52,217 nucleotides of DNA from a virus (lineage: Duplodnaviria > Caudoviricetes): positions 1 through 52,217 of the IMG/VR virus record IMGVR_UViG_3300020034_000023. One strand, 5' to 3'. The notes under the pieces are model-generated. The model worked only from the letters and a program-made list of their open reading frames with translations. It had not been told where the DNA came from and made no database searches. The translations under genes and the position numbers were made by a program. Positions 7,242 through 51,419 of the stretch are shown piece after piece (within the stretch, counting starts at the first letter, position 1; each line of letters begins with the position of its first letter).

Positions 7242-7410
7242 GTCTCACTCCATTGAGGTCCAATAATTGTTGAAGACCAATCGCGGCGGCAGTCACCGTG
7301 ACTCTGCGGTGATTCACCACTCTGACCGGCAGGGCCACTCCAAGGCTACGTCCTGCTTTGCCCCGGCTCTCTCAGCGTGAGTCTGACGCTTACCCCACCG
7401 GTATAGGCAC

Positions 7411-7439
7411 AGCGTAACACACGCGGATTAGTTTGTCAA
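7411..7439 (-). promoter_or_regulatory. sigma70-type promoter
   Basis: TTGACA-17-TACGCT. Confidence 0.75.
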
Positions 7440-7454
7440 GGTAGCACATATTCC

Positions 7455-9394
7455 TGTGACACATCTCCACCCGGTCGGCGACGCCCCGTGTCCGGGTGCC
7501 GCATCCAGCCTTCGGGCTCACCTTCTCCATCCCACAGCGCAAGGGCGACGACCGCCGCCCAGATGGTGTCGTATCACCACACGTTGTCGAACGACATGCT
7601 CCCGGTGAATCCGATACCGATCCGCGCCCGCCCCTCGAACAGGGGGTAGATCACCGCCGTGCGGTCGCCAAAGATGCGCTCAGGAAACGCCATTGCTCCG
7701 CCTTCTCCTACTCTGGTGCGGGGTGAGTGCTCGACTAGCCAGTGCTTGCACACGGGCAAAGGCCAGACTCCCGTCTTCTCGAATGCCGTTCCCGTCCGAC
7801 CAACAGCCATCATCGGCCGCGATGGCGGTCAACGCCTTGCGGTTCCGCTCGATTTCCTCCACGAAGCTCTCCAGCAACTTGTACGCGGCATAGGTATCGG
7901 CCCCGTAGATCGTCCCGCTCTGCGCAATCATGTGCTCCCGCAACTCCGGTGAGAGATCAGGGGAGAATTCATCCGGAGTCGCCTTCCCGGTTTTGAGAAT
8001 CTCCTTGGCCCGATTCAAATCATCGTCAAGCGTGTCGTAGTAGGACATCTTAATGCCTGCCAATCATCCACAACACGAGCCCCAGACAGAGAAACACGAT
8101 CACCGTGGCACTCGCGACTCCCATCACCCAATCACGCGCGCTTGAAAGTGCATGTCGCGCAGCACCCACTCGATGGCCTCGGACTGATCCGCGAGCGTCA
8201 ACCCCATGCGGTTCTGCCGGATGGCGAGCCGAATCGCCGACATCAACTTCAACTGGGCTTCGCTGTATCGCGTCAGCCCGGTCTTCTCCGTATCCATCGC
8301 TACTCCTTTGGGTGCGCGGCCAGCCATGCGTCCGCTGCTCGAATGTAATCGTCCGACGCGTGTTCCAGCTCCGCCATCATCTCGGCCTCCGTCTTGGGCC
8401 GCTCCCAGACCAACCGATAAGCGGTGCCACCCACCACGTAGACGAGCGCATAGGCCAACACTCTGAGAAAGCGCAACACACGTCTCACAGCTCCGCTCCA
8501 CAGTGATAACAGCGAAACGGCACCCCCGGTGGGGGAGCCACCGCAAAATTCGTCCACGCCCCACACGCGACGCACGACCCCCCGATGGTGTGGGCATAGA
8601 GCGTACTTATGTCTTCTCCAGCTTTTTCCCGCATTGGCACTCGAAATGGGTCGTGGTAATTTCCACCAGCCGGAGTCCGTGCCCGTCCGCCTGTGCCAGA
8701 TTTCCCGGCACGGGCTTCTTGATCGTCTTCACGTGTTTTTGCCATGTGCGATCCACCCACCGAGGAATCTTGTCGCTGCGTGGCTTCATGACGAACACCG
8801 CTGGCACTGTGTGTGATCGAGCACGTCGCCGCAGAAGCCGCACGTCTTGCGGGGACGACCATCCGCCCAGTGCCAGCTGATATTCGCATGGTTCTGAGCA
8901 CGGCACTCCGCTATTGACTTCTCAAACTTCTCACGGCTCACGCGCCGTTCCTTCACCGTGGTGACCCGTTCAGAGTCAGACATCTCCATCAGTACTCCCG
9001 TTTGCAGCGTCGGCACACCAGCCGCTTCTTCGGCGTGTCCCATTGCACTCGATTGCCACAGGTCGCACAGAGCTTTGTCAGCCGGGTGAACTGGGCAGGC
9101 ATCAGCCGCCGCATCAACTCCACCGAATTGGGCCGCGCCATCACCAGTACTTCTTCACGAAGTGCCCGACGATCCACATGAAGGGCGCGACGATCACCAG
9201 CAGGATGACGATCAGGAGAGTGGTCTCGCTCATGATCCCCCCACGGGTCGAGCCACCACCGTAGACGGCCCACCGTAGGACGTCGTGCTGGCCTTTTTGA
9301 GCGTGTAGTCTTTCAACGCCTCTTCTTTGGTGTCCGCCGTCACGACCCACGTGCGGGTCACCAGCTCGGTGCGGGAAACGAGAAAGTCAGGCAT
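7455..9394 (-). other. Cluster of small hypothetical early-type genes, several with CxxC
   Basis: Dense minus-strand ORFs (7680..8048 and others). Confidence 0.5.
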
Positions 9395-9888
9395 TAGTCC
9401 CTCGGGTCCGGGTGTCCGGTTTGCAGATAATGCAGATAGGGCGTCGTATGCACGTACTCGAAGTGCAGCGTCCCATCCGGGTAGACAATGACGAGCGGCT
9501 TGCACACCCGCCGCGCATAGCGAATGGTGGCCCACGTGCCGGAGCCACGGAGCTTCTCCTGCTTCTGCGCCGGGGCGGCGATCATCACCTGTGACGCGTC
9601 CACAATCTCCGGATTGCGCAACAAGAAGTACTTCGAGGGCCAGTAGGAGTCGCAGACCACAGGCGCGCGCTGCGTGACCTTCCCCTGCTTGTCCACCCCC
9701 GGATGGCCCTCCATATAGAGTTTCGCCTTGCGCGCGAGCACATGGAATTCCGCGTCGCCCCCCACACACATGCCGTGATGCGCCACCTGCACGCCTTGCG
9801 TGATGAACTCCTTGATGAGGAGGTCCACCTTCAGGGCTTGGGGCGGGGTCATGCCACGTCGCGTGGCGGTGAATCCGATATCTCTCAT
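9394..9888 (-). CDS. SLOG-superfamily (DprA/YspA-like) nucleotide-binding protein, leaderless
   Basis: IGFTATRRG, HHG.C.GGD, RN..IVD, SGTWATIRYAR motifs; ATG lies 7 nt after a -10 box. Confidence 0.8.
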   Translation of the reverse strand: MRDIGFTATRRGMTPPQALKVDLLIKEFITQGVQVAHHGMCVGGDAEFHVLARKAKLYMEGHPGVDKQGKVTQRAPVVCDSYWPSKYFLLRNPEIVDASQVMIAAPAQKQEKLRGSGTWATIRYARRVCKPLVIVYPDGTLHFEYVHTTPYLHYLQTGHPDPRD

Positions 9889-9895
9889 AACGCCC

Positions 9896-9924
9896 AGTCT
9901 AGCCACTTTCCAACGGTTTGTCAA
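9896..9924 (-). promoter_or_regulatory. sigma70-type promoter (leaderless)
   Basis: TTGACA-17-TAGACT-7-ATG. Confidence 0.8.
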
Positions 9925-9928
9925 GGAC

Positions 9929-10636
9929 TTACGATTTCGGGGGTTCCAACAGCTTCCGGAAGTTCTGCACGAGCTGTTTCAGTTCGGCGTTCTCCCGATC
10001 CACTTGGAGCACCCAGTCCCGTAGCTCGGTCAACCCCGCGATGCAGTCATCCAGTGTGGAGGCGGCTGCCATCATCGGGGTCACCTTGGAGAGCGATTCA
10101 GGGATGTCCCCCGTGCGCATTTTGCGCTTGACCAAACTGATGGCCTGCGCGAGTGACGCATGGGTCGTGGGGATGCCCTCTTCGCGTGCAATTGATTGCA
10201 ATCGGTGGGCTTCGTCGGCACTCCCTTTGGAGAGGTCCGGGGGATGGCGCTTCAGAAGGTCTTGGATCGCGCCTTTGGCGGCGACTTGCTTGGGGCCTTT
10301 CCCGTTGCCGTTCCCATTCCCTGAGTGCGGGGGGAACAGGTCGTAGAGCAGCTGGCGCACCGCCCGATGGTTCTTGCGGTTGATGTAGGTCGCATGCACG
10401 CGCCGCGCTTCCTTCGTGAGCTGATCGTAGATCGGCGGGGGGATGCCATCGGTCAGAACAAACGCCTTGGTCTTCGGGGGAATCTTCGTGATGATGTCTT
10501 GCACCGGCACCCCGGACTGGGCCTCGATCCAATGCACGCGTGGGTGACGGGCGAATTCTGCGTTGGGGGTTTGTTCTTTGCCGAGAAACACGCACGTGAA
10601 TTCATCCTCGCCGATGACGACCTTCGAGTCTTCCAT
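9929..10636 (-). CDS. Hypothetical protein with coiled-coil C-terminus
   Basis: Long ORF with AAGGGAG SD before MEDSKVV. Confidence 0.7.
   Translation of the reverse strand: MEDSKVVIGEDEFTCVFLGKEQTPNAEFARHPRVHWIEAQSGVPVQDIITKIPPKTKAFVLTDGIPPPIYDQLTKEARRVHATYINRKNHRAVRQLLYDLFPPHSGNGNGNGKGPKQVAAKGAIQDLLKRHPPDLSKGSADEAHRLQSIAREEGIPTTHASLAQAISLVKRKMRTGDIPESLSKVTPMMAAASTLDDCIAGLTELRDWVLQVDRENAELKQLVQNFRKLLEPPKS
10187..10200. promoter_or_regulatory. TGCA-box, intragenic (encodes LQSIA)
   Basis: Exact consensus match. Confidence 0.75.
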
Positions 10637-10721
10637 AACACTCCCTTGTTGAATGGGAGGAGGAGTGGGCGGGGAGCCCACCCTCCAGTAGCGATCCGCC
10701 GTGACGTAGACCACGACTAAA

Positions 10722-10799
10722 TGGTAGGGTGGACCGGGCTCGAACCGGCAAGTCTAGGCTTTGCGGGCTCTAGGTGTTTGTCCTTTTCACCACCACCCT
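10722..10799 (-). tRNA. Atypical tRNA-like gene (Leu-like body, single irregular anticodon/variable arm)
   Basis: 7-bp acceptor AGGGTGG/CCACCCT, A73, encoded CCA, T-arm GCCGG-TTCGAGC-CCGGT, D-arm GTG..GG..CAC. Confidence 0.75.
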
Positions 10800-12680
10800 G
10801 TGTGAGACGACGACGCTTCCGGAGCGACCGCTCGACCGACCGCTCAATTTCATCATGCACGACCCGCTGCAACTCGGAGGTCTCTTCGGTCATCTGCCCG
10901 GTCTGGCTGAACCCTCCGAAACTTTTGGCGGGGACATGCTCTGCCACCTTCTGTGCGACTCGGCAGAAGATGGCATTGGCCTCTCTTCGTGACAAGCCCA
11001 CAGCGGTGGCGCAGCGCCGAGTGTAGCCGAGCAAACCTCTGAATGTCATCGCTTTTTCCTACTCCGTGCCTTGGCCTTCCGTTTCGCTTTCTTGGTGGTC
11101 GCATCGAGCATGGTGCCACCCGCATCCGCGATTTCTTTGAGCAGGCACTTGAAGTCCTTCCGACCCAACACGGTCAATTTCAAGTAGACCGCATCCTCCT
11201 CGGGAGGACAGATGGTGATGTCGAAATGCTTGCCGTCACTGCCGCTGATGATTGAGCCTTTGATGTCCTTACTACTGGAGAAATGCTTCTCAACTGTGAT
11301 CATCGGTTCCCCTCCACTGGTTTATCTACCGGCTCCAACGCGACGGCGAAGGTCCGTACAAGGTCGCACTTCACGGTGATGGTCGGCTTCCCTCTGAGCG
11401 CCCGCTTCTCGATGGCATAGGCGTGCCGGTCGCCCATCTGCACATCGACCAGACAGTAGGGGCAGTTGAACGGCACGAACAACTTTTCTTTGGGCTCCTC
11501 TTGGCTCATTTGAGACTCGCCTTCGCTTTGCTAATCAGCCACTTCTTTTTGGCCACGTCTTCCCGGTGATAAGTGAGGGTCAACGCCTGACTCCGTACCT
11601 CCACGCCATCCGCCTCGAACATCACGTGCGTGATCCCAGCCTCCACCCCCTCCAGATACGCATGGCGAATCAAGGCGGACACCTCTGACGTGAGACTGTC
11701 CACGATCTGTTTCACACCCGCCATCTACTCGCCCTCCACCACACCCACACGGATGTGCGCCATCGCACCAATCGGCTTCCCCTTCGAGACTCGCATCCGT
11801 GCCCACGCACCACAGAGCTTGTCCGCCGCGCGCGCCCCCTGCACCACGACGCGATGCAGCTCCACCGTCTTGTCCGGGTAAGTGGTGGCGAATGTCACCA
11901 GCACCGGCATCTCGACCGCCGCCCAGATCGACTGACGTCCCTCATGGATCGCGATGCGCCGCACAATCTCGTACGCGTCCAGCAACTCTGGCTTGACCAG
12001 ATCATCGGGGATGGGATGGCCGAGCGCGTCGCAACTCATGTCTTTTTAACCGGCGCAGCCACGTCGTCGTGCTGTGCTTTGAGCGGTGTGGCGAACTCCG
12101 AAGCCGGGGCCACCACCGGATCGGCCAGTTTCTCGGGCACCGGCACATCGGCCAACGTCCCGCGCTTCAGGACGGCCGACCAGAACTGCAACCATGGCCC
12201 GCTCATGTCGGTCACCTTCTGATCGGGGAAGCCCGCTCGAAAGGCTGTCTTCAGATCCTTCACGCTGATCGTCACGACTTTCGTTGCCTGCGCCATTCAC
12301 CTCTCCTCCGGCAGCCACGTGTTAGTGCGTGCCCGCGTAAACAAAGCCTTGACTCGCCCCGCCCAGAGCCCCGCCTCACGCGTCGCGAGCCGAGACACGT
12401 TCCCATCCTGCACTATCGTGGGGATCACCCACACGGCATCGAGCACGAGGTCTGAAGCGGCTTTCTCCAAGAGGGTCAGATCCGGCTTCAGGTAGAAGAC
12501 CGGGCCGTCGCCCCCTGTCTCAGACTCGTCGGCATGCGGCTGGCAAATGAGCACCGCCCGATGGGTATCGTCCGCGCGCACATAGACCCCCACGGCTGGT
12601 TGGCCGCACACGGTGTCATCATCGTTGTGAAATTCACACGTCGATTTGAACACGGTGATATAGCGGGTGGCGTTCATGAT
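10800..12680 (-). other. Cluster of small hypothetical genes (11046..11303, 11300..11509, 11506..11724, 11725..12039, 12036..12296, 12297..12677)
   Basis: Head-to-tail ORFs with ATGA/TAATG overlaps and SD motifs. Confidence 0.65.
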
Positions 12681-12715
12681 GGCTTCACTCCTTGAAGTCG
12701 TGCGATGGAATTCCG

Positions 12716-12919
12716 TTACGCGACGTCTTCCAGATCCACGTAGGCCCGCAGCGACGCGAGCGCATCCGGATACGTGGGAGCCGCGAAGACTCCGTTGTGC
12801 ATCGCCTTCACCTCGTCGGCCCGACCCGCTTGCTTCAGGGCCTTGGCGACTTGGTTGACGAGCGAGAAAATGTTACCACTGTATTTCGCAGTATTGATGG
12901 TCAATTTGGGCTTCGACAT
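12716..12919 (-). CDS. Small conserved phage protein
   Basis: GNIFSL...V.KALK.AG...Y.DAL pattern; own promoter and SD. Confidence 0.65.
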   Translation of the reverse strand: MSKPKLTINTAKYSGNIFSLVNQVAKALKQAGRADEVKAMHNGVFAAPTYPDALASLRAYVDLEDVA

Positions 12920-12951
12920 AGCCACTCCATTGGAATTGTTGACGTGGGATC

Positions 12952-12995
12952 AGTCTACCACGCACCCAAAGGTTTGTCAAGTGCAACTGATTGCA
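12952..12995 (-). promoter_or_regulatory. Promoter with TGCA-box 1 bp upstream of -35
   Basis: Box at 12982-12995; TTGACA-17-TAGACT. Confidence 0.85.
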
Positions 12996-13001
12996 CAGGT
13001 T

Positions 13002-15040
13002 TTACACGTCGATTGACAGTTTTTCCACAAGCCACTGGGCCTGCGCCGGAGAGCACCCCACGGTCGTCACCAGCCACGAGACCGGATTATGCACCGCATG
13101 ATCCTCCGGGGTCATGGACTGGAGCGCGAGCCGTCCCAGTCGGATGGCAGCAGTTTGCTGGATGGGCGTGAGTTCACCGAGCGTCATGAATCTTCCTCGC
13201 CTTCTCCGTGCGCAACAGCATTTCCGAGATGCTACCATAGTTGCCGCACAGATCCGCCGCCGTCACCGTCACGGTCTCCGGCACCTCCAGCGCCATCCAG
13301 TGTCGCTGATCCTCCGGGTCCACATCCTGCGCCGCGTAGAGCACCCCGCTTTCGGGCGACTGATAGAGTATCGGCATCACAGATCCTTTCGCGTATCGTG
13401 TGTCACGAACGTCACCCACCCGAGCCGCTGGGCCAGCTGCCCCATGGTGAACTTGTCCTTGTGACGGTTCCAGAATCCCCGGCAGCACGCGGTCTTCGAG
13501 TGGTGGCAGATGCGGAACCCGCCGAAGTATCCCTCCATATGCTTGTCGGCGATCTGGGCTTCGAGGTTCGGCACGTCGAAGTGCGAATTCTTCCGGTAGA
13601 TGCAGGTCTTACACTGCGCCGCTTGCACCTCAAACGCCTCCATGATTACCTCCCCAGACACTCGCGATACAGATGGTGCAGCCAGCGGGACACAGAATAC
13701 CAGCCCCGGTAACCACAGACTCCGCAGTGTATCCGCTTCATGCGCTTAGGTACTTTCATCGCGTCGGGGCGTCTGAGGTCTCCTTCGGGTCTGCTCCGGT
13801 CACCGTGTAGCCGCCGACCACCAAATCGAACTCGACGCGGGCACTCTCGTAGTACACCCAGCTCGCATCGTCGTAGGTGGGACCGGGAATGTGGACATCC
13901 GCGTCATCCTCGATCTGGGCGACCAGCGTCTTGAAGTCTCGGCCTTTCATCGTTTCCTCCACCACACTACGACGTCATGCACGAGCGCGATGGGCAACAG
14001 GATTGGCAATGCCACCAGCCACGTGATCGCAAACGCGGTCAACTCGATGATCTGCGTCAGCTCCCACCGCATGTGTGTCCATCTCATGGCTTGAACCGCG
14101 TGCCTTTCAACGTCTCCCACACCCCCTCCGCACCTGTCGGCCACCCCGGTCGATTTTCCTCCAAAAACTGGAATACGGAGTGGCAGTTGGCGCACATCCA
14201 TCCCTGCCCACTCGCGTGCGGTTCACCGGTCTCTTCCACGACGTCCTGCACCCTGATGAAGCCGATGGCCTCCTCACACTGCGGGCACACCTTAATGTTT
14301 TCCGGCATTCCGTTTCCTCATCCCTGCACCGTGCTCAGGAGGTTCTCCATTTAGTTCCCCTTACTGGCGTCATACGCCCGATCCGAGTCGGTATCGCACT
14401 GGGGGCAACTGCCGGGAGTCTTGCCGTGCGCACACGTTTTGCACGCGGCATACGGCCAGCGGTTGTTCCAGAGAGCTTTTCCACACCCCACACAATGATG
14501 CGTGGGCGGGGTCGGCACGAACGGCATCTATTCCTCCATCCCGTAACCTTGCAGCCGGTCGTAAATGAAGAGTCGAAACACGCGATCCACAATCTCGGGG
14601 TCCGTCACCTCGTTGCCGTCCTTGTCCGCCACCATCGGCATACCCCAGCACGCCTGCGCCTTGTCGCTGAGCGTCACCCAGTGGACGCCATACTTCGAGT
14701 TAATACGCACACGCTTCGGTTTCGGCTTCGCTCGCGACTTCCGGGGCTTGACGTTGCAACCCGCGCAGAAGGCGGTTCGGCAGTGCGGATTCAGACACAT
14801 CACCATCGTTGCCTCCACTCAGGGGCCGGTCGTGTCGGGATCGGGTTCCATCAACGTCGTCATGTCGCAGTAGCACTGCGTGCAGACCGTGAGCACGTCG
14901 TATTCAGCCGGACTCGAAGACGTCTGAGGGAACGTCGGATTCGCCAGCGTTTCCCCGCCATCCTCTAAGGGTCGGCCGCAGCGGTCGCACGTCGGGGCTA
15001 ACGGCCCATGCGCGTGATTGAGTTTAGCGTTGAGCATCAT
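13002..15040 (-). other. Cluster of small, mostly Cys-rich hypothetical genes
   Basis: ORFs 13377..13661, 13756..13965, 14084..14308, 14528..14818, 14819..15040, most with CxxC pairs. Confidence 0.6.
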
Positions 15041-15064
15041 AGCGTCACTCCTTTGACTCTGCCC

Positions 15065-15093
15065 AGTATAGCACCTATCGTGCCGTTTGTCAA
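15065..15093 (-). promoter_or_regulatory. sigma70-type promoter
   Basis: TTGACA-17-TATACT. Confidence 0.85.
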
Positions 15094-15644
15094 TGCTCAG
15101 CCTTGAGCCGCCCTTCGACGTCGGCCAGCTCCGCTGCCTCCAGCTGCACCTTCAAGTCGGCGACCGCCGTATCCGCCTCCGTGACAACCTTCCGGGCCTT
15201 GGCCAGCTCCTCTTCCGCTGCCACGAGTCGGCCTTCGAGATACGTCCGCTGGGCGACCAGCAGAGCGAGGGGGTTCTTTTTAACCCACACCTGCACCGCA
15301 GGCTCCACCGCCGCCAGCATCGTATCCTTCGCGTGCGTGGTGGCATCCGTCCACCCGTCCTGCCGCGTCGCGTAGAGGTCACGCCGACGATCCCACGGTG
15401 ACGCGAGCCGCTTCGGCTCCGTCAGGCGATAGTTGCCATCCGTGGCGAACTCCCGGCCGACGTGGAAGAGTCCATCCTCCCAGAGGTGGAGGTGGGCACT
15501 CATCTTGTAGCTCACCCCCCGTGTGGCGAGCACGCCTTCGGCATAGAGATGATCCGCCTGCGTGGGGCGCACCGTCAGGACACCCAGCTTCGTGCCGACC
15601 GCATAATCCGTGTAAGCCATGGTCTCCTCAGTAGGCCGGGGCAT
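15090..15644 (-). CDS. Hypothetical protein with C-terminal coiled coil
   Basis: ORF track; heptad-like C-terminus; GAGGAG SD before an alternative start (MAYTD). Confidence 0.65.
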   Translation of the reverse strand: MPRPTEETMAYTDYAVGTKLGVLTVRPTQADHLYAEGVLATRGVSYKMSAHLHLWEDGLFHVGREFATDGNYRLTEPKRLASPWDRRRDLYATRQDGWTDATTHAKDTMLAAVEPAVQVWVKKNPLALLVAQRTYLEGRLVAAEEELAKARKVVTEADTAVADLKVQLEAAELADVEGRLKAEH

Positions 15645-15840
15645 TCACCGTCACGGTGAACCCGGCTGTCCGCAATTTCGTGGCGAGCGCATCGGCGGCT
15701 GCCTGCCCATCCGCTCGGAGGCTGGCATCCCAGCCGGTGCCGTCGAACGCCTGTCCAGCGGCCCGTTCCACCGCCTGCCGGAACCGGAGCACATCGCGCC
15801 AGCAGACACCGGGCGAGTGCGTCACGCGGACATTGAACAT
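15628..15840 (-). CDS. Hypothetical protein
   Basis: AAAGGAG SD before MFNVRVTH. Confidence 0.6.
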   Translation of the reverse strand: MFNVRVTHSPGVCWRDVLRFRQAVERAAGQAFDGTGWDASLRADGQAAADALATKLRTAGFTVTVNAPAY

Positions 15841-15869
15841 GTGAGGCTCCTTTGTCGAGCGGGAGGATG

Positions 15870-16072
15870 CTTGGGTAACTCTTACGACTCGTTGCCACAG
15901 ACGGACTTGAACCGTCACCGCACATCCACCCCGCTCTGAGTTGGGTGCTCGTCGCGCCGTTCAGGGAATCGAACCCTGACCCCGTTGGCACTTCGACTTC
16001 GCTGGGTTCAGCAGCGTCGTCTCCGCGTGAACCCCTCTGGGGATTGCCGACCCGGCGTGACCAACACCCTAC
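15870..16072 (-). ncRNA. Structured leader RNA with two tRNA-type T-arms
   Basis: CAGGG-TTCGATT-CCCTG and GACGG-TTCAAGT-CCGTC; 5' GGGTGTTGGTC pairs with GACGAGCACCC. Confidence 0.6.
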
Positions 16073-16078
16073 TCTCTG

Positions 16079-16131
16079 ATCTTACACCCTCTTCTAGAAT
16101 TTGTCAAGTCGAAGGATTGCAATTGAATGCA
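16079..16131 (-). promoter_or_regulatory. Promoter with TGCA-box 10 bp upstream of -35
   Basis: TTGACA-17-TAAGAT; box TGCAATTGAATGCA at 16118-16131. Confidence 0.8.
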
Positions 16132-16301
16132 GGAAGTGGGCACGGTGCCCACCTCCCACCTTCTCCATCACCGAGGTTTCCGTACTTCCTTGTCGTGGTA
16201 TGCGGCTTCCTGACAGTAACTGCCCCCGCACGTGACGCTGTAGCCTTCCGGCCGAGGGCTGCCACAGTAGCGGCACACCCCGTTAGTCACCTTCCGCTCT
16301 G

Positions 16302-16484
16302 TCATGCTGTCTCCTTTTTGACCCGTCGCTTCACCAGCTTCACCGGGTAGGGGGTGTTGTCGCGATACTCCTTCCGCACCCGCCGCCCGTCCGCCGCCGT
16401 CTCCTCGGTCACCTCGTGCTCCCAGCCCTTGCCGTAGTGGACCCAGAGCTGCCACTCGTCGGTCGTTTTGCGCGTGTAAACCAT
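16302..16484 (-). CDS. Hypothetical protein
   Basis: AAAGGAGG SD; 60 aa. Confidence 0.65.
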   Translation of the reverse strand: MVYTRKTTDEWQLWVHYGKGWEHEVTEETAADGRRVRKEYRDNTPYPVKLVKRRVKKETA

Positions 16485-16496
16485 GCGCCCCTCCTT

Positions 16497-16826
16497 TCAG
16501 CTCTTCGCCTTGTAGGCAGCGGGTCCGTTGAGGTAGTTGACTCCGTAGACGTGGACCGCATCCTGTCCCGCGTTCACGTAGACCGAGCCGCGTGCGTGCT
16601 TCGCGGGCTTCTTCCACCCCTCCGCCTTCAGCACATTGCCGGTGCTCCGTTCCACGAAGGCGAAGACGCTGCGCTGGCCGTGGCCCGAGCTGACGACCCG
16701 CACATACTTCCGGCCGTCCGGGTCCACGCTGAGTGTGGGCGTCGGCTCCCCGGCGTAGTGGGCATCGAGCTTCGCCTGCGTGGCGGCGACGAAGACGGTG
16801 AGGGCGGCATCGAATGGGTTGGTCAT
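16497..16826 (-). CDS. Conserved phage protein
   Basis: GRKY.RVV...SVFAFVE..TG.VLKA.GWKKPAK..RG pattern; CAAGGAG SD. Confidence 0.75.
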   Translation of the reverse strand: MTNPFDAALTVFVAATQAKLDAHYAGEPTPTLSVDPDGRKYVRVVSSGHGQRSVFAFVERSTGNVLKAEGWKKPAKHARGSVYVNAGQDAVHVYGVNYLNGPAAYKAKS

Positions 16827-16857
16827 GCGTCACTCCTTGACTGTTGACTACTCTTTG

Positions 16858-16901
16858 ATCTTACACCCTCTTCTCCGATTTGTCAACTGCACTCAATTGC
16901 A
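16858..16901 (-). promoter_or_regulatory. Promoter with TGCA-box 1 bp upstream of -35
   Basis: TTGACA-17-TAAGAT; box at 16888-16901. Confidence 0.85.
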
Positions 16902-16940
16902 ATTGGAGCGGGGTGAGCCCCATGCCCACCCCTCCCCGAC

Positions 16941-17366
16941 TTACCCCTTCTTCGCCTTCTTGGCCTTCCCCGCCGCCCGCGCCTTGGCCAGTCCCTTGAT
17001 GGCGGCTGCCCGGACTTCCGGCCGCTGCAACGGAGACTCGATCCCCTGCTCCTTTCGCACCTCGGCGAGCAGTCGCCCCGCCTTCCGGCGACTCATTGTC
17101 CCGAGCGACTCCCGCTGACGGGCGATGGTGTCCGCCACGTTGGACGGGATGACGATCCGCTGGCTGCCGTTCCGGTCCACATACTGGAGGAAGATGGTGT
17201 CGCCCTGATCCCGGCGTCGCACCGTCTGCACGATGAACGTCTGGGCCGAGCCCACAAGGGGGGACGTCGCCAGTAAGGTGGTCGGCTTAGTCCGCACCGC
17301 ATCCGGTAAGCCGTCGAGCGATCCCATCATGCGGTCGAAGTCATCGAGTCTTGTGCTATCGTCCAT
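16941..17366 (-). CDS. Hypothetical protein with basic C-terminus
   Basis: CAAGGAG SD; own promoter. Confidence 0.7.
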   Translation of the reverse strand: MDDSTRLDDFDRMMGSLDGLPDAVRTKPTTLLATSPLVGSAQTFIVQTVRRRDQGDTIFLQYVDRNGSQRIVIPSNVADTIARQRESLGTMSRRKAGRLLAEVRKEQGIESPLQRPEVRAAAIKGLAKARAAGKAKKAKKG

Positions 17367-17415
17367 ACACGCTCCTTGAGGTCACTCCATTGACGGAATG
17401 TCAATTCCTCACATG

Positions 17416-17445
17416 ATCATATCACACAAACATCCCGTTTGTCAA
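17416..17445 (-). promoter_or_regulatory. Leftward promoter of a divergent pair
   Basis: TTGACA-18-TATGAT. Confidence 0.75.
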
Positions 17446-17476
17446 GTAGGCCGTATTTGCTAAGGATTTTGAGGAC

Positions 17477-17505
17477 TTGACAAACTCGTTGCGTTGTGAT
17501 ATGCT
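17477..17505 (+). promoter_or_regulatory. Rightward promoter (only plus-strand promoter seen)
   Basis: TTGACA-17-TATGCT with extended -10 TG. Confidence 0.85.
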
Positions 17506-17514
17506 TATTGGACA

Positions 17515-17679
17515 ATGAATAGCACACACCGCTCGTTCAGGGCCGGGGTTGCCCGCTTGGTGCAGGAGTTCAGTGGGGGCTACCACCTCGTGGGTCCGGA
17601 TGGGACAGTCGCGCGCTTCTCGCTGTCGCTGGAGAAAGCCCTCGCGTATGCACAGGCTCGGGGATGGGAGGTGCGATGA
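17515..17679 (+). CDS. 54-aa microprotein (not in the ORF track)
   Basis: MNSTHRSFRAGVARLVQEFSGGYHLVGPDGTVARFSLSLEKALAYAQARGWEVR*, starting 9 nt after the -10. Confidence 0.65.
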   Translation: MNSTHRSFRAGVARLVQEFSGGYHLVGPDGTVARFSLSLEKALAYAQARGWEVR

Positions 17680-17765
17680 CGTTCACCCCCGAAATGTCGT
17701 GGCGGCTGGTCTTTGTGCCCGCTGTCGCCTTTCTCGCCTCCCTCGTCTGGATGGCGTTCGCTTAG
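17676..17765 (+). CDS. 29-aa single-TM peptide (not in the ORF track)
   Basis: GGAGG SD, ATGA coupling; MTFTPEMSWRLVFVPAVAFLASLVWMAFA*; stop overlaps the convergent stop at 17762. Confidence 0.65.
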   Translation: MTFTPEMSWRLVFVPAVAFLASLVWMAFA

Positions 17766-20473
17766 CTGGACGCGGGCCGGGGCCTGAACTTCGCGGGCAC
17801 CGGCAGCGCCCCGGTCGTGATGTCTTCCTTCAACATCTGGATCGCATGGGCGGCACGCTGGTAGGCGTGTCGCTCGTAGGGGTTCCCCGCCTCCTCTTCC
17901 TTCGCCCACTCGTGATACATCTCAATCGCCGCATCACACAGGGCTTCCACCCGTTCCGGCTCCGTCAAGGGACGCTTCACCGGCTCCGGCTTGGGCATGG
18001 GCTCGGGCACTGCCGACTTCAGACGTTTCATCTCCACGGACTGCACCGGCACCACATGGTCGCCGTCCAGCCGCACGCGAGTCCACCGCCCGGTCACCTG
18101 AATCACCGTGCCTTTGTTCAGATGCGCAGGCTCCCCTTGCCGACGTGCCCAGTACTCCACCCGCTGCCCCACCAGAATGATATCCATGGTGTTACTCGTG
18201 CGACGGGGCCTGCTTCGGGGCCTTCCCCGGATTCGCCGACAACTTACCCAGATCCGTGCGCCGTTGAATGAGGGTGTCGCGAATCACCTTGTCGGGGGCG
18301 AGGGTATCGACCAGCCCATACAGCTCATCGAACAGGGCCATCACGTGCGGGTTCCAGAAGTTGGCCTCCTGTAGGTCGCCCAGCTCGGTAAGGGCCGCAT
18401 CGCGCTGCTTCGCCAGCTCGTACTGCGGAGTGTGCTCCAGCTCCTTCAGCTTGCACGCCAACGCAGCCTCCCGGTCCTTCAGCATCTTCCAGATGGCCTG
18501 TGCCTGTACAAACGAGGTACACGGCGCGTCATGGTCGCTGAACAACCCATGAAACTGTTCGAGTTCCCCCTCCGCCGCCTTCATGCGCTTCACCGCCGCT
18601 TCATAGGTAATCATACTGGTTCCTTGGGCGGGAGCACCGGGACTCCCTGCTCGATCATCCGTCGATATTCGCTCTGACTCTGCGCCTGAATGGGCTCCTT
18701 CCGGAATGCCTTCAGGTATTCGACCGCCTTCTCCAGCGACCACGCATGCACGGACGTCAAATCCTTGGTCACGTCATCCTTGGTCACGTGTTTACGAATG
18801 GGGGTGTCGCTCCAGTCGATAGAGATGACCCGCTTCCGCCAGCCAATCTCGATGAGCCCGTGCTTGGTCTTCACCAGCCACCACGGCGATTTGAACGACT
18901 GCACCGCAGAATTCAAGAATTCCAGCTGTGGATAGGTGAGTAGCGTCACCCCTTCCTCGTAGACGCGAGGAATGTCGAGATTCTCTGTGCGCGCGGGTCC
19001 GTGATAGCCATTCGGCAGCTGCCACAGGTTGAACACCTCGATCCCCGCGAGGGTGAAGATGGCGCGCGCTTCCGTCTCAGTCATGGCTACTCCTTCGAGG
19101 CGTACACCGAATCCCACCAGACGCGGTTCGGGTTGTTGGACTCTTCTTTGGCACGCGCTGCCGCCTGCTCCGGGTAGAGCGACCGCGTATCATGCCCTTC
19201 AGTCCCGAAGTCTTCCGCAAACTTGTCAGACAACGCTCCGTGGGCCGCGTCGTCAAGGTAAATGTCCCCCTCCTTCGGCATCGAGCGCGCGGCACAGAGC
19301 GCCACCAGCACGCCATCCACCACTCGAATGCGGATGCTCATGGCCCGGTCCCCGCACACTCGGGGGTGTGGGCAAACACCTGCCCGCACTTGCTACAGGG
19401 GGCTCCGTCCGGATACAGTGGCTCCTTTGCGGCGACGGGGGATGCGGTGAGCGCAGCCTCCATAGCGCGAATAACTCTTTCACGCAGTAAGTCATCTTCA
19501 ATAAGAGGCACAACGGCATGAATAAATTTCGTATGCGCGGCCGTCAGCGTCACCTCCAAGGCTTCGGCCCGCACCCACTGGAACTCGTGCTGCTTCGACT
19601 TGTCACGGAGCGCCGCCACGAGAAGCGTCGCGTGGTCCGTCTCTTCCTTCAAGGCCGTCTCTAGGCGCACCCACTCGGCCCGCAGAATCTGGAACATCTG
19701 GGCGTCCATGGCGTCGCGCATCACTTCGTCTGGGAAGCCGTGCCCCTTCAACAGCTTGGGGCCGTGGAGCGCCGCATTCGCCTCCGAGATGCCCTGCATC
19801 TTGAGAAACCGCTCCGTGGCCCATTCGAGGTCGGTCATCGGTGGAACCTCTTACATGGGCACCCCACCACGAGGCAGTGCCGGGGCTTGCTCCCGCGATA
19901 GGCCGACGTTTCGTGTTCCCCCTCGGCGTGCGGGCAACAGGCATCCCTGAACGTCTCCGCCCATGCGGCAAAGGCTTGGGGCTCCAAATCCTTGTTGCCG
20001 GGAATACCGGTAAAGGTCCACTCGTAGGGCTCCCCTCGGTGCAGCCGTTTGGCGCGTGATTCAGTCGTGCCCCCGATGTTGGCGAAGAATCCGGCCTCAA
20101 AGGCACTGCGCACGCGGGTCAACCGACGCAACACCCGGCGCAGCAGTTCCGGCACATTCACCGACTGTGGGACGGTGGACTCCTTGAACATGCGCAGTGC
20201 CCACTCCACCTGCTGATCGATGGGCAGCTGCCATGGATCATCCGCCTTGGCGGCGGCTTCGTCGGCGTCGATCCGCTCTTCGAGATGCTCGTCTTTGGCG
20301 TTGAAGGGGGTGCCGTCCTTGAAACGGGTCTCCTCCTCCGGGTAGTAGGTGCGCACACTATCGGCCACGATGTGGCGAATGTGGGCGTTCTCCAGCGTGT
20401 CTGGTTGCGCCTTGAGCCATGCGAGATTATCCCGCACATGCTGCTCGTAGGTCGCTCGATTGACTTTACTCAT
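17762..20473 (-). other. Hypothetical genes (17762..18187, 18192..18614, 18611..19084, 19087..19341, 19338..19838, 19835..20473)
   Basis: Coupled minus-strand ORFs. Confidence 0.65.
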
Positions 20474-20486
20474 GTCGCAAATCCTC

Positions 20487-20545
20487 TGCACTCAATTGCA
20501 ATGGGTGGCTGGTCCTAGTCTGCCACAAGTAGCAGGATTTGTCAA
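20487..20545 (-). promoter_or_regulatory. Promoter with downstream TGCA-box
   Basis: TTGACA-17-CAGACT; box at 20487-20500. Confidence 0.7.
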
Positions 20546-44600: not shown

Positions 44601-44676
44601 TGGCTGGCACGGCAGGACTCGAACCTGCGACCTTGGGATTAACAGTCCCCTGCACTACCGACTGTGCTACATGCCA
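44601..44676 (-). tRNA. tRNA-Asn(GUU)
   Basis: 76-nt cloverleaf, loop CUGUUAA, U1-A72, G73, encoded CCA. Confidence 0.95.
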
Positions 44677-49471: not shown

Positions 49472-50668
49472 TCATGCCTTCTCCTTCTCCAGCCAGTTGT
49501 TGGCTTTGATGGTCTCGTAGACCAACACCCGCACTTCGGCGTGAGAAAACGTCACCTTGGTCGTGCCACTCAGCACCGCCCCCAGCACATGGTTCCGCTT
49601 CTCAGTCGGGGCTTTGCCGAGCACGGACTGATACGTCTTCCGGGCGAACGCGTGCGCCGCCGACGTCTGCAACTTCTCGAAGGTCATCACCTTGTCGATG
49701 CGGAGCGCCCGATACAGCTCCTTCGGCAGGGCGTCGATGTCGTTGGTCGTCATGACGGTCAGCACCTGTGCCTTGTGGTACTGGAGCCACCACAGGGTCT
49801 GACTGAGAATACGACGGGCCGTCCCTTCGTCGCCCCCCGAGCCGCCAAACTGCTTTTCCGCTTCGTCCAGTAACAGGACGCATGGAGCATTCAGCTCGAT
49901 CTGCTGGAGGTTTCGGGCCACCCGGCCTTCACTCTCCCCCAGCCAGCGGTTCAGGCTGGTGCCGATGTCCAGTCGGAACAGGGGCACATCCCAATGCTTC
50001 GCCAGCGCCATGGACGCCATGCTCTTGCCCACCCCCGGATCACCCTTCAGCAAGAGCCCACGGGGCACCAGCTGCGGCGGCGTCTTCGGGTTCAGGAAGT
50101 ATTTGTCGTTCAAATACAGCCATTCCTTCAGCGGCTTCGGCATGTCGTAGAAGTCAAAGTCGGTCGAGAGCGGTTCGAGCCCCGGATGTGCCCCGCCCAT
50201 CAGCTGCCGGGTCTTCCGCACATCTTGGGGCAGAATCGAGCCGGTGCGGGCCATGGTCAGCTGCACCGCTTCGGCGGCGGTTTTGAGCGAGAGCCCACGC
50301 AGCACCTGCACGAGCGGCTGAATCAAATCCTCTGACTGGATGAACTGCTTCAGGTAGCCGATGAAGAAACTGTCCGGCACCACGAGCACGCCCGTGTCAT
50401 ACACGAGCATGGAGGGCTTCTCGGGGTTGATGATGACGCAACTCCCCCCGGTAATCTTCAGCTTTTTGTAGGCATCATCCGTCACGAGGGCCAGATCGTT
50501 GGCCCACCACAAGCAAATGTCTGGCAGGGGATGGGAAGCTCCAGACGGCAGTGGACGCACCTCTTTTCCAGCAATCCGCGCCAACACGTCTTTGACGTGG
50601 ACGGGATCATCCGTATGAATCCCAATGAAGGGCAGGCGTGCTTTCAACGCGGTCTGGAAGTCAATCAC
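49472..50668 (-). CDS. Ycf46/SpoVK-like AAA+ ATPase
   Basis: RGLLL.GDPGVGKS, W.GESE, PCVLLLDE.EK, TTN...LP.EL.R..R.D. Confidence 0.88.
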   Translation of the reverse strand: MIDFQTALKARLPFIGIHTDDPVHVKDVLARIAGKEVRPLPSGASHPLPDICLWWANDLALVTDDAYKKLKITGGSCVIINPEKPSMLVYDTGVLVVPDSFFIGYLKQFIQSEDLIQPLVQVLRGLSLKTAAEAVQLTMARTGSILPQDVRKTRQLMGGAHPGLEPLSTDFDFYDMPKPLKEWLYLNDKYFLNPKTPPQLVPRGLLLKGDPGVGKSMASMALAKHWDVPLFRLDIGTSLNRWLGESEGRVARNLQQIELNAPCVLLLDEAEKQFGGSGGDEGTARRILSQTLWWLQYHKAQVLTVMTTNDIDALPKELYRALRIDKVMTFEKLQTSAAHAFARKTYQSVLGKAPTEKRNHVLGAVLSGTTKVTFSHAEVRVLVYETIKANNWLEKEKA

Positions 50669-51419
50669 GGAAGCTCAATCACATAATCGTTAATGGTTTC
50701 ATGGTCCGGGTCGTAGCCGTCACGTCCGTGCGGATGACGCGCCTTCAGGCCCGGATGGGGCGGATGTTCATCCGACCATGTGCCGCCGACACCGTAGGCT
50801 TCATCCTCGTTGGCCGCATTCACGAGGGTATGGCGGAAGCGGATTGATCCCGGCCCGCTTGCCTCCGAGATGATAATCGCCTGCACATAGATGAATTTTG
50901 GCATTAGGTATCATCCTTTCCATGGTCTTCCGCCCACCACGCCCGCTTCCGAAGTTCCCGGTGCATGGCGGTCTTCAGCGTGGGGAGCCGCTTATGTTTC
51001 ACCCCCGGTAGCAACGGTGTCTCATACCGGCCATCAGAGGTGGGGGTGATCTTCCACCCTTGGACTTCCATCTCTTCGTCCATAATCCACCACGCGCCCC
51101 GCATGCGCTAAGATCCGCCCGCTGAGAGACTCCATCCACAGGCAAATCTGGACCAGCGCATTCCCGTAGGCGTAAATGAATCGCTTTTTGAAGTGCATCA
51201 TCAGAAGGTCACGTCGATGCCGACCGCCAAGGGGTGGGCCGTTAATGCAAAGTCTTCGGCCGACTTCTTGCTGTCCGCCCAGACGGTAACCGAGTGACGT
51301 GCGTGATTTCCGGCTGCGATCACGGTGACCACCCATGCGGTCAACCCGTGCTGGCTGTAGTCGTTTCTGACTGCGGATCTCATAAGGCTCACTCCATTGA
51401 GGAAAATCGACGTGAAGGC

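Follow-up and report, generated by a model that had tools for sequence, protein, structure and literature searches.

The window, i.e., the whole 52,217-nt stretch of DNA analyzed here, carries on its (−) strand a real phage tRNA gene that is more than a chance cloverleaf. Its product is well supported as a class-I tRNA of the tRNA-Cys(GCA) lineage with four departures from the usual body, namely A at the discriminator position 73, a bulged A in the anticodon stem, C at position 33, and A1:U72 as the first acceptor pair. Comparison with the tRNA found at the same place in a related phage showed stems preserved by paired changes. We tentatively favor the reading that the gene encodes a tRNA-Cys look-alike, which would be poorly charged by CysRS and would serve in a host-phage conflict over tRNA.

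Detection and anatomy of the tRNA gene

ARAGORN called a tRNA-Cys(GCA) with exact boundaries at 10722–10799 on the (−) strand, while its control, 60 dinucleotide shuffles of the window, gave two calls, i.e., ~0.03 false calls per shuffle. A search with Rfam RF00005 confined to 10715–10806 matched the full model (1–71) with 34.7 bits (E-value of 2.3e-6), which is above the gathering cut-off of 29 bits. The 7-bp acceptor stem, G18 G19, UUCGA-type T loop, and 3′ CCA expected of this family are all present; the regular 5-bp anticodon stem with U33 is absent, the window tRNA having a 1-nt stem insertion and C33 with a loop of 7 nt. The same element went unreported by RF00005 in a scan of the whole window, in a 301-nt scan with E-values up to 10, and in an Rfam scan of its own virus record, and these misses in wider scans are losses of a weak match at the speed filter. 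Its score on the general model is far below those of normal tRNAs, e.g., the tRNA-Asn of the window with 68.6 bits. By comparison, a model built from 25 ordinary phage tRNA-Cys (R1) scored the odd tRNA at 56.4 bits (E-value of ~3e-16), a gain of 22 bits over the general model.

A contig that comes from another soil sample and another study spans 10448–10795 and, at a low depth of 3.6 and with tRNA bases 1–4 outside its coverage, shows no change or indel within the tRNA. Since the letters are identical in a second soil sample, they are not the assembly slip of one data set that the preliminary description had considered. The runs compared were all DNA contigs, and no RNA run was listed as carrying the stretch. 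The predicted minimum-energy fold of the 78-mer is not a cloverleaf (−25.2 vs −22.7 kcal/mol for the cloverleaf). Unmodified tRNAs often have a minimum-energy fold other than the cloverleaf, and we take this result as only weak evidence against a tRNA fold.

The anatomy of the tRNA agrees with much of the preliminary description: the acceptor stem is perfect and accompanied by A73 and an encoded CCA, and the letters of the irregular anticodon arm, CUAG-A-GC / CCGCAAA / GC-CUAG, are those given, read on the (−) strand. Folded in isolation, this arm adopts the bulged-A form in 0.97 of the ensemble. The description erred in leaving nothing but the odd arm between the D and T arms, as four further bases, ACUU, lie there. 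Because these bases between the anticodon and T arms are a normal short variable loop, the layout is that of an ordinary class-I tRNA into which a single base has been inserted. The body is thus not of a Leu type whose anticodon and variable arms have collapsed into one, and no feature found points to the Leu variable arm that the odd arm was said to resemble.

Table 1. Features of the tRNA gene and its surroundings in the window
Feature	Positions	Strand	Basis or remark
tRNA gene of Cys(GCA) type, 78 nt, CCA encoded	10722–10799	(−)	ARAGORN, Rfam RF00005, model R1, independent sample
Acceptor stem, 5′ strand (A1 to G7), pairing with 10726–10732; first pair A1:U72	10793–10799	(−)	7/7 standard pairs
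D arm: 3 standard pairs plus A13.A22, 11-nt loop with G18 G19	10774–10790	(−)	ARAGORN, Rfam alignment; design also in 25 phage tRNA-Cys
Anticodon arm: 6 pairs including 26:44, one bulged A, 7-nt loop CCGCAAA	10754–10773	(−)	Isolated-arm fold, cmscan
Inserted A, bulging from the 5′ side of the anticodon stem with two pairs between it and the loop	10769	(−)	1-nt insertion in cmscan, arm fold, independent contig
C33	10765	(−)	U in 24/25 ordinary phage tRNA-Cys
Anticodon GCA, followed by A37 and A38	10762–10764	(−)	ARAGORN, Rfam alignment
Variable loop ACUU, whose final U is able to form a Levitt pair with A15 (A15:U48)	10750–10753	(−)	Tertiary pair inferred from positions
T arm: 5 pairs (one G.U), loop UUCGAGC	10733–10749	(−)	ARAGORN, Rfam alignment
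Discriminator A73 (10725) and encoded CCA (10722–10724)	10722–10725	(−)	Sequence letters, ARAGORN
110-aa ORF reading through the whole tRNA	10717–11049	(−)	Last 26 codons are the tRNA; TAG stop 2 nt past the CCA
GC-rich hairpin within the 80 nt that separate the tRNA from the next gene	10660–10685	(−)	z of −2.84 for a 96-nt stretch; no U tail
235-aa gene downstream of the tRNA; marker linking the window to L007, L008, and L009	9929–10636	(−)	Protein similarity

Ordinary phage tRNA-Cys and the closest relatives

The comparison set consisted of 25 ordinary phage tRNA-Cys(GCA) from IMG/VR contigs and Bacillus phage TsarBomba. All 25 have a 3-bp D stem, with a D loop of 11 nt in most and 9 nt in two; they pair positions 26 and 44, possess a GYCGG/UUCGA T arm, and have, in most cases, a 4-nt variable loop. 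The window tRNA shares with them the GCA followed by A37, the D arm, the stem extended by 26:44, the 4-nt variable loop, and the T arm. It differs in A73 (U in 25/25 and a purine in 0/25), in the bulged A of the anticodon stem, in C33 (1/25), and in A1:U72, which is a minority state in a set with mostly G1:C72. The one ordinary tRNA with C33, L037, has U73 and also carries an extra base atop its anticodon stem. A Cys-type body alone is no proof of descent from a cysteine acceptor, as two non-GCA tRNAs of related phages share this body (R1 scores of 66.6 bits for the "Met" tRNA of L007 and 65.3 bits for the "His" tRNA of L008).

This comparison also bears on the tRNA-Leu traits named in the preliminary description, which had correctly recognized a GCA anticodon combined with C33 and a non-Cys discriminator. 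The window tRNA resembles bacterial class-II tRNA-Leu in its discriminator (A73), in the 3-bp stem and large loop of its D arm, and in a possible A15:U48 pair; it differs in having a variable loop of 4–5 nt (not 10 or more) and the anticodon GCA, and the shared traits are equally those of tRNA-Cys. Specifically, the D arm described as class-II-like is there, but its 3-bp stem recurs in 25/25 phage tRNA-Cys and is not specific to Leu. The T arm matches that of phage tRNA-Cys, and the A15:U48 pair, which is possible from the positions, is replaced by G15:C48 in L007 and in most ordinary phage tRNA-Cys.

The closest relative found is L007, a metagenome contig on which the 235-aa gene has a homologue (45% identical) with a tRNA directly 5′ of it, the same arrangement as in the window. 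This one syntenic relative does not carry the normal tRNA that would have spoken for the simple decay considered in the preliminary description; its tRNA has A73 and an irregular anticodon arm with an 8-nt loop, which ARAGORN reads as a 4-base anticodon. The two tRNAs are identical in only 52 of 79 aligned columns. Each forms standard pairs throughout its 21 stem positions, of which 13 are the same in the two, 1 differs on one side, 7 differ on both sides, and none is broken. The Levitt pair covaries as well (A15:U48 in the window, G15:C48 in L007). With 21/21 pairs intact and 7 compensated, the tRNA fold has been under selection at least until recently. Compensated stems speak for selection over most of the divergence, not for today, and both the bulge and C33 may have arisen as lesions only recently. 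The A73 shared with L007 indicates long persistence of a purine-73 tRNA with maintained stems.

A third tRNA(GCA), that of L008, has A1:U72, G2:C71, G3:C70, and G73 (pairs taken from the ARAGORN drawing), a combination similar to the acceptor set of tryptophan tRNAs. A purine at position 73 (3/3) and one extra nt between the D and T stems are common to the tRNAs of the window, L007, and L008, and all three keep GCAA in the loop while the flanking stem letters differ. As to the conservation of the odd arm in related phages, which the preliminary description had proposed as a check, L007 has an irregular arm, and the extra nt sits elsewhere in each relative, a pattern equally compatible with selection and with a relaxed constraint on this arm. 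The three soil-phage genes can be regarded as a small set linked by a neighboring gene family. Given the similar irregularities in the two relatives, the window tRNA may be nonstandard yet functional and not mere junk.

Searches for further members left this set at three. A scan for purine-73 GCA tRNAs retrieved none from 185,579 species genomes and 23 stretches from IMG/VR, comprising 13 tRNA-Ala(UGC), 9 without an ARAGORN call, and 1 from the known L008 phage again, with no new member beyond it. A pattern of the acceptor and T loop had no match in the 185,579 species genomes, and its sole match in IMG/VR, an unrelated tRNA-Pro, was rejected. Neither the odd arm nor the tRNA 3′ half had an exact-pattern match in IMG/VR, blastn of 9500–12500 against 50,697 phage records gave no match, and protein searches of IMG/VR (with the 235-aa and 176-aa neighbors alone and with the A1 alignment) revealed no relative. 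Finally, blastn of the window tRNA against phages yielded only generic T-arm matches; with the L007 tRNA as the query, phage tRNA-Cys and a tRNA-Gly were matched weakly.

Genomic neighborhood

The source of the window is a soil phage genome that is roughly half-complete and distantly related to the Stenotrophomonas Delepquintavirus phages. Between TerL and ligase, the Delepquintavirus phages Summit, DLP_5, and DLP_3 show no protein similarity to the window and are therefore uninformative on the tRNA site; Summit has no tRNA in this interval, and none is annotated there in DLP_5 and DLP_3 (annotation only). The start codon (ATG) of the 110-aa ORF that reads through the tRNA overlaps the stop codon of an upstream ORF (11046–11303). 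Its GC content by codon position is coding-like over the first 83 codons (0.61/0.51/0.70) and not over the tRNA, and its protein has no relatives among 5.8 billion proteins.

On the downstream side, the 235-aa protein matched no Pfam or PHROG family, and Atlas and Foldseek returned only a generic Rossmann-like similarity, so that nothing connects the protein with tRNA. A promoter/terminator scan gave two weak promoter-like sites and no terminator-like site. A Pfam scan covering 39 proteins of the window revealed no tRNA-related enzyme. The idea that the tRNA serves as an att site was rejected, as its 3′ half occurs only once in the window (≤3 mismatches) and the scanned proteins include no integrase.

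Possible roles of the tRNA

U73 and the GCA anticodon are described as major cysteine determinants for CysRS (PMC9976931), and A1:U72 is reportedly not accepted by the ordinary enzyme (PMC7609411). Given its A73 and A1:U72, the window tRNA is predicted to be a poor substrate of CysRS, and this predicted poor charging suggests that it serves as a look-alike of tRNA-Cys in the struggle over tRNA between phage and host rather than as an everyday cysteine donor. In the scenario that we tentatively favor, the tRNA would be transcribed together with the (−)-strand gene string and excised by RNase P and 3′ trimming, with the CCA already encoded. It would adopt a normal L-shape, its stems and 15:48 pair being kept through compensating changes. 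It may then act as a decoy for a tRNA-Cys-directed nuclease or another tRNA-binding defense or, alternatively, as a spare tRNA whose irregular anticodon arm would be left uncut. The low general score, the ORF read-through, the non-cloverleaf energy minimum, and a family of only three members all speak against this reading.

Phage tRNAs are now viewed as weapons against host defenses that cut tRNA. Escape from host tRNA nucleases by way of an altered anticodon loop has been proposed or shown for some of them, with a proposal by van den Berg et al. (PMC10264068) and reports of a T5 tRNA acting against PARIS (PMC11464382) and of a phage tRNA acting against retron effectors (PMC11555353). A bacterial toxin that cleaves only tRNA-Cys has also been described (PMC13096801). 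As with the nuclease-escaping tRNAs so described, the gene in the window is a phage-borne copy with an altered anticodon arm and an otherwise preserved cloverleaf. However, the described cases keep their amino-acid identity and carry loop substitutions only, whereas the window tRNA has lost the Cys discriminator and gained a stem insertion. On sequence grounds, cysteine identity would not be retained, A73 and A1:U72 replacing U73 and the mostly G1:C72 pair. If the favored reading holds true, a phage tRNA that keeps a selected fold and the Cys anticodon and gives up the discriminator would represent a different tactic, i.e., that of a decoy or mis-coder. The gene would also offer a natural measure of the irregularity that a functional tRNA tolerates in its anticodon arm, be it a bulge in the stem, C33, or a loop of 8 nt.

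A broader proposal, which we consider rather doubtful, is that a small soil-phage lineage of tRNA-Cys-derived RNAs comprises purpose-built impostors that combine GCA and a selected L-shape with a purine 73 and an extra anticodon-arm nt. These might be unchargeable decoys that occupy or jam a tRNA-Cys-directed defense enzyme of the host or deliberately mis-acylated tRNAs that alter the reading of Cys codons in the course of infection.

Among the alternatives, a recently inactivated tRNA-Cys pseudogene stands up best, although we judge it to be rather unlikely. Here, constraint would have been lost across the family, with each lineage acquiring its own lesion, which in the window would be the bulge, C33, and the run-on upstream ORF. 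The departures do fall at functionally important sites (33, 73, and the regularity of the stem), the irregularity differs from one relative to the next among the three, the score on the general tRNA model is low, standard scans missed the gene, an ORF reads through it, and the T stem contains one G.U. However, broken or uncompensated stems are absent (21/21 pairs intact, with 7 compensated double changes relative to L007), the Levitt pair covaries, the GCAA loop was retained while adjacent stem letters changed, and A73 is common to the window and L007. In addition, phage genomes rarely retain dead sequence, which counts against a pseudogene.

An ordinary working tRNA-Cys, charged sufficiently by the host CysRS despite the bulge, C33, and A73 and supplying the decoding of UGC and UGU, is unlikely. 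It would account well for a GCA followed by A37 and A38 in a Cys-type body with intact stems, and it gains from the absence of any other tRNA-Cys in G001, a complete relative. Also in its favor, C33 occurs in the U73 phage tRNA-Cys L037, and an anticodon stem of 6 bp with an unpaired A is active in translation in the tRNA-Pyl of Methanomethylophilus alvus (PMC7609411). The likeness to the latter is one of shape only, i.e., an extended 6-bp stem interrupted by a single unpaired adenosine; in the tRNA-Pyl as described, that adenosine lies on the 3′ side, and identity, anticodon, D loop, and organism all differ. Against this alternative stand U73, present in 25/25 ordinary phage tRNA-Cys and a major cysteine determinant (PMC9976931), and the first pair, A1:U72, that ordinary CysRS reportedly refuses (PMC7609411). 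In addition, the tRNA-Gly of G001 has the standard bacterial U73, so that the host of G001 probably obeys the standard discriminator rules.

It is improbable that the gene encodes a mis-decoding or non-decoding charged tRNA, acylated by an anticodon-blind LeuRS or by another synthetase that reads the acceptor end, and inserting the wrong residue at Cys codons or used away from the ribosome. Bacterial LeuRS uses A73, A14, A15:U48, and a large D loop, of which the window tRNA has A73, A14, and the loop and can form A15:U48, and the acceptor end of L008 (A1:U72, G2:C71, G3:C70, G73) could be read in a similar sense. However, these Leu-like traits are equally ordinary in tRNA-Cys and come without a long variable arm; charging by LeuRS would have to draw on A73 and A15:U48, of which A15:U48 is absent in L007 and A73 is absent in L008. 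There is precedent in soil bacteria for natural tRNAs that mistranslate deliberately, the tRNA-ProX family (PMC10404621), in which anticodon and acceptor-end signals likewise mismatch. As described, those tRNAs are cellular and have a dedicated synthetase, in contrast to the window, where no partner enzyme was found among the 39 proteins scanned, and a benefit to the phage is not evident.

Still less probable is a reading-frame tool, i.e., an irregular anticodon arm that promotes +1 frameshifting or four-base decoding at UGY sites of a phage gene. The 8-nt loop and 4-base anticodon of L007 have the layout classic for +1 suppressors such as SufB2 and SufJ, as these are described, and the window tRNA shares with them one extra nt in the anticodon arm. 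Its extra base, however, is in the stem and its loop has 7 nt, and the charging problem posed by A73 persists. Lastly, a chance cloverleaf or an assembly artefact can be practically dismissed: ~0.03 false ARAGORN calls per shuffled window and the misses in standard Rfam scans are outweighed by the R1 E-value of ~3e-16, the 34.7 bits in Rfam, the syntenic homologue, and the identical letters in an independent sample.

Should the gene turn out to decode in the ordinary way or to be dying, its value would be smaller: it would illustrate that genes of this kind escape standard tRNA scans, and the "class-II-like" D arm would simply be the tRNA-Cys design. As a side observation, the neighboring tRNAs of the same phages include a CAU tRNA with U73 and a GUG tRNA with G73 and no G-1, which hints that mismatched anticodons and discriminators are perhaps a wider habit of this phage group.

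Anatomy of the element and comparison with phage tRNA-Cys

Analysis of the element revealed a 78-nt cloverleaf on the minus strand, called by ARAGORN as tRNA-Cys(GCA) with exactly the limits given in the table. The perfect acceptor stem and A73-CCA end noted in the preliminary description were confirmed. Specifically, alignment to the general tRNA model of Rfam (RF00005) gave an anticodon stem of U-A, A-U, G-C, an inserted A, G-C and C-G, with C at position 26, and an anticodon loop CCGCAAA (32 = C, 33 = C, 34–36 = GCA, 37 = A, 38 = A). The isolated anticodon arm had 97% of its ensemble in this fold, with an extra pair C26:G44.

RF00005 matched at 34.7 bits (E = 2.3e-6, full model; cut-off, 29 bits) when only 10715–10806 was searched, and no match to the tRNA was returned by a whole-window scan, a 301-nt scan at E ≤10 or a genome search of its own record. 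As a chance control, 60 dinucleotide shuffles of the window yielded two ARAGORN calls. The minimum-energy fold of the 78-mer is not the cloverleaf (−25.2 vs −22.7 kcal/mol), which we graded as weak evidence. In a separate study, a contig from another soil sample spans 10448–10795 (depth 3.6), carries its part of the tRNA without change or indel, and differs from the window solely at 10559. Since this independent contig agrees throughout the covered tRNA, the bulged A, C33, A73 and CCA are no assembly slip of one data set, and the assembly error that the preliminary description had allowed for is discounted.

A degenerate pattern (GCAA plus the variable loop and T arm common to the window and its relatives) returned 30 stretches from IMG/VR; ARAGORN called a GCA tRNA in 29 of these loci, with 26 distinct sequences. 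Leaving out L038 (locus L008 again) and L030 (broken stems) and adding the annotated tRNA-Cys of Bacillus phage TsarBomba gave a reference set of 25. All 25 have a 3-bp D stem, in most with an 11-nt loop AAGnGGnnnAA (9 nt in two). Position 26 is never free, since its pairing with 44 extends the anticodon stem to 6 bp; the variable loop is 4 nt and the T arm reads GYCGG/UUCGAAU. U73 is invariant (25/25), and U33 is present in 24, the exception being L037, which has C. Because L037 ends in U73-CCA, C33 does occur in an otherwise canonical phage tRNA-Cys.

Under R1, a covariance model of these 25 sequences, the window tRNA scored 56.4 bits, 22 bits above the general model, and the window tRNA-Asn scored 44.6 bits, down from 68.6 on the general model. 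The window element thus has a class-I tRNA-Cys layout plus one inserted base. The preliminary description had proposed a Leu-type body with the anticodon and variable arms collapsed into one; the same D arm and other supposed Leu features occur in the 25 ordinary phage tRNA-Cys, and nothing indicates a fused variable arm. R1 also gave high scores to non-GCA tRNAs at two related loci (L007 "Met" [CAU], 66.6 bits; L008 "His" [GUG], 65.3 bits), so this body type is common among the tRNAs of this phage group, and a Cys-type body alone is not proof that the ancestor accepted cysteine. Further support for a Cys lineage comes from the GCA-A37 loop.

Features of the window and of related loci, with coordinates
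Feature	Coordinates	Strand	Details
Window tRNA	10722–10799	−	Runs from 10799 down to 10722
Acceptor stem of tRNA		−	7 bp, zero mismatches; then two spacer bases
D arm of tRNA		−	3 standard pairs plus A13 opposite A22; 11-nt loop with GG
Variable loop of tRNA		−	ACUU, between anticodon arm and T arm
T arm of tRNA		−	5 pairs; loop UUCGAGC
3′ end of tRNA		−	A73 plus encoded CCA
110-aa ORF	10717–11049	−	ATG overlaps stop of preceding ORF
GC-rich hairpin	10660–10685	−	Between tRNA and next gene; without U tail
235-aa gene	9929–10636	−	ATG at 10636, preceded by AAGGGAG
Large terminase, 679 aa	20542–22581		57% identity to Stenotrophomonas phages Summit, DLP_5 and DLP_3
Ligase-to-terminase block	7300–20500		Hypervariable, small orphan genes
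tRNA-Asn(GTT)	44601–44676	−	Normal; 68.6 bits; U1:A72, G73; just downstream of DnaB-like gene
Pfam matches			RecA-like protein; DnaB-like helicase; ResIII/DEAD helicase; ATP-dependent DNA ligase; RuvC; Dam-like methylase; AAA ATPase; DUF6011 protein; DUF1937 protein
L037 tRNA-Cys	L037:1010–1087	−	191-kb contig; C33, extra base atop anticodon stem
L007 "Met" tRNA	L007:6712–6786	+	ARAGORN Met(CAT); Cys-type body, U73
L008 "His" tRNA	L008:8375–8451	+	His(GTG); U1.C72 mismatch, G73, no G-1:C73 pair
tRNA-Gly(GCC) of phage G001	G001:14025–14095		Canonical, U73
Summit "suppressor tRNA"	L002:32032–32102 (Summit 49872–49942)		GenBank tRNA-OTHER; head of Summit tRNA cluster
Summit tRNA-Tyr	Summit 50209–50294		Annotated; unmatched by Rfam
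Summit Rfam match	Summit 50685–50753		Fifth match, 30.1 bits; outside annotated tRNAs

Relatives and selection on the fold

Close DNA or protein relatives of the tRNA region were absent from cultured phages and IMG/VR. The 235-aa gene has three relatives (45%, 36% and 28% identity), the alignment of which retrieved three metagenome loci, L007, L008 and L009. In L007, the closest (45%), a GCA tRNA lies directly 5′ of the 235-aa homologue, as in the window; it shares the body type, A73 and CCA with the window tRNA, its anticodon stem is 5 bp long (6 bp counting G26.U44), and from its 8-nt anticodon loop, UUGCAAGC, ARAGORN reads a four-base anticodon, "gcaa" (56 bits with Rfam, 70.6 bits with R1). 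L008, part of the complete 120,838-bp phage G001, has no tRNA in front of its homologue; its GCA tRNA lies ~1.7 kb downstream and has A1:U72, G73, a free G26, a 6-bp anticodon stem and a normal loop CUGCAAA (28 bits with Rfam, 54.9 bits with R1). No tRNA was found at the L009 locus.

Between the D and T stems, these three tRNAs have 24 nt vs 23 nt in most ordinary tRNA-Cys, and the extra nucleotide differs in place (a stem bulge in the window, the loop in L007, position 26 in L008). The same length of 24 nt occurs in a few ordinary U73 tRNA-Cys (L015, L016, L031 and L037), whose extra base lies either in the variable loop or atop the stem; the count alone is therefore unremarkable, and it is the internal place of the window bulge that is special. 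A scan of 185,579 species genomes for GCA tRNAs with purine 73 found none, and the corresponding scan of IMG/VR returned 23 stretches, comprising 13 tRNA-Ala(UGC), 9 without an ARAGORN call and the L008 phage again. AT-rich viral contigs (L043:9986–10028, L061:7070–7112, L042/L054 and L052/L059/L063) hold tRNA-like 3′ halves, each an anticodon-like hairpin with GCAA, a T arm and RCCA without an ARAGORN call; some appear to have no D arm.

The window and L007 tRNAs are identical in only 52 of 79 aligned columns, yet each keeps 21 of 21 standard stem pairs: 13 are unchanged, one differs on a single side (G.U to G:C), seven on both (1:72, 5:68, 11:24, 26:44, 27:43, 31:39 and 50:64), and none is broken. 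The L008 tRNA likewise has 21/21 standard pairs, as read from the ARAGORN cloverleaf drawing. The loop letters GCAA are constant in all three tRNAs, and the neighboring stem letters differ. This pattern is unlike neutral decay: for most of the time since these tRNAs diverged, selection acted on the fold and probably on the anticodon as well. This includes the window's own lineage, in which two derived states, C50:G64 and A15:U48, each show compensation (A15:U48 is the presumed Levitt pair, which reads G15:C48 in L007 and most ordinary tRNA-Cys). Stem compensation does not show the window's bulge and C33 to be old.

L007 holds a second tRNA directly after the 235-aa homologue, the "Met" tRNA, with an anticodon-stem region 2 nt shorter than the Cys type and U73 where A73 is expected for Met, Ile or fMet. 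This CAU/U73 tRNA and the GCA/A73 tRNA flank the homologue, and their anticodon and discriminator look swapped. In L008, the "His" tRNA lies 9 nt before the GCA/G73 tRNA.

Likely role of the window tRNA

U73 and GCA are described as the major cysteine determinants, with U73 alone conferring cysteine identity on minihelices (a passage in PMC9976931), and an A1:U72 pair is stated to be one that an ordinary CysRS would reject (PMC7609411). Since the tRNA-Gly(GCC) of G001 has the standard bacterial U73, the hosts of these phages show no apparent sign of unusual discriminator rules. With purine 73 in the three relatives vs U73 in all 25 ordinary phage tRNA-Cys, these purine-73 GCA tRNAs would be charged poorly at best by CysRS; nevertheless, they have retained their fold and GCA loop.

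Our preferred reading, which we infer tentatively, is that the window tRNA is a tRNA-Cys look-alike in a conflict over tRNAs. It might act as a decoy for a tRNA-Cys-directed nuclease or another tRNA-binding defence or, alternatively, as a spare tRNA escaping cleavage. Precedents in the literature are the PARIS (PMC11464382) and retron (PMC11555353) cases, a bacterial toxin cleaving only tRNA-Cys (PMC13096801) and a proposal that anticodon-loop changes protect phage tRNAs from host nucleases (PMC10264068). This reading is weakest in one respect: known nuclease-escaping phage tRNAs keep their amino-acid identity, whereas the window tRNA, on sequence grounds, would not. Full-text term searches turned up no account of a purine discriminator in phage tRNA(GCA) genes, which is not proof of absence. 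The anatomy of the window tRNA is clear and unusual, and its family is tiny.

That the tRNA is instead a recent pseudogene seems doubtful: in its favor, each relative has a different lesion, the score on the general model is low and the 110-aa ORF reads through the tRNA, but against it, the stems are intact and compensated. An ordinary Cys decoder is unlikely given A73, even though L037 combines U73 with C33 and a functional tRNA-Pyl tolerates an unpaired A within its 6-bp anticodon stem (PMC7609411). Mis-decoding or charging by LeuRS is improbable; natural mistranslating tRNAs exist (a passage in PMC10404621), but what looks Leu-like is ordinary for tRNA-Cys, A15:U48 is absent in L007 and A73 is absent in L008. 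A frameshift tool, for which the sole hint is the 8-nt loop of L007 (cf. excerpts of the SufB2 and SufJ papers), is very improbable, and a chance match or artefact can practically be dismissed.

Neighboring genes and phage setting

The 110-aa ORF has a coding-like GC pattern (0.61/0.51/0.70) in its first 83 codons, not across the tRNA; with no stop codon ahead of the tRNA, it runs on so that the tRNA makes up its last 26 codons, and its TAG lies two bases past CCA. No relatives of this orphan were found among 5.8 billion proteins. The corresponding upstream ORF of L007 ends 8 nt short of the tRNA, so the overlap is peculiar to the window. Excision of the tRNA would presumably leave the upstream message without a stop codon. 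No tRNA-related enzyme was detected among the 39 window proteins scanned against Pfam, and the 235-aa protein gave no family match and no informative fold match. The 5′ arm of the hairpin has the same 7 letters as the 5′ acceptor strand of the tRNA and could compete for its 3′ acceptor strand.

The window is an entire IMG/VR virus record and is linear (52,217 bases; completeness estimate, 50%), with a G+C content of ~60%, a steadily negative GC skew and nearly all long ORFs on the minus strand. Summit, DLP_5 and DLP_3 belong to the genus Delepquintavirus (genomes of ~96 kb), and their counterparts share 50% identity with the window DnaB-like protein. Together with the terminase identity, this shows the record to be roughly one half of a ~100-kb siphovirus-type genome, with cultured phages only distantly related. 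In the ligase-to-terminase stretch, these three phages have no detectable protein in common with the window; no tRNA was found there in Summit or in the annotation of DLP_5 and DLP_3. The Summit tRNA cluster is located elsewhere than the window tRNA-Asn site. The sequencing runs containing the window sequence are soil metagenomes.
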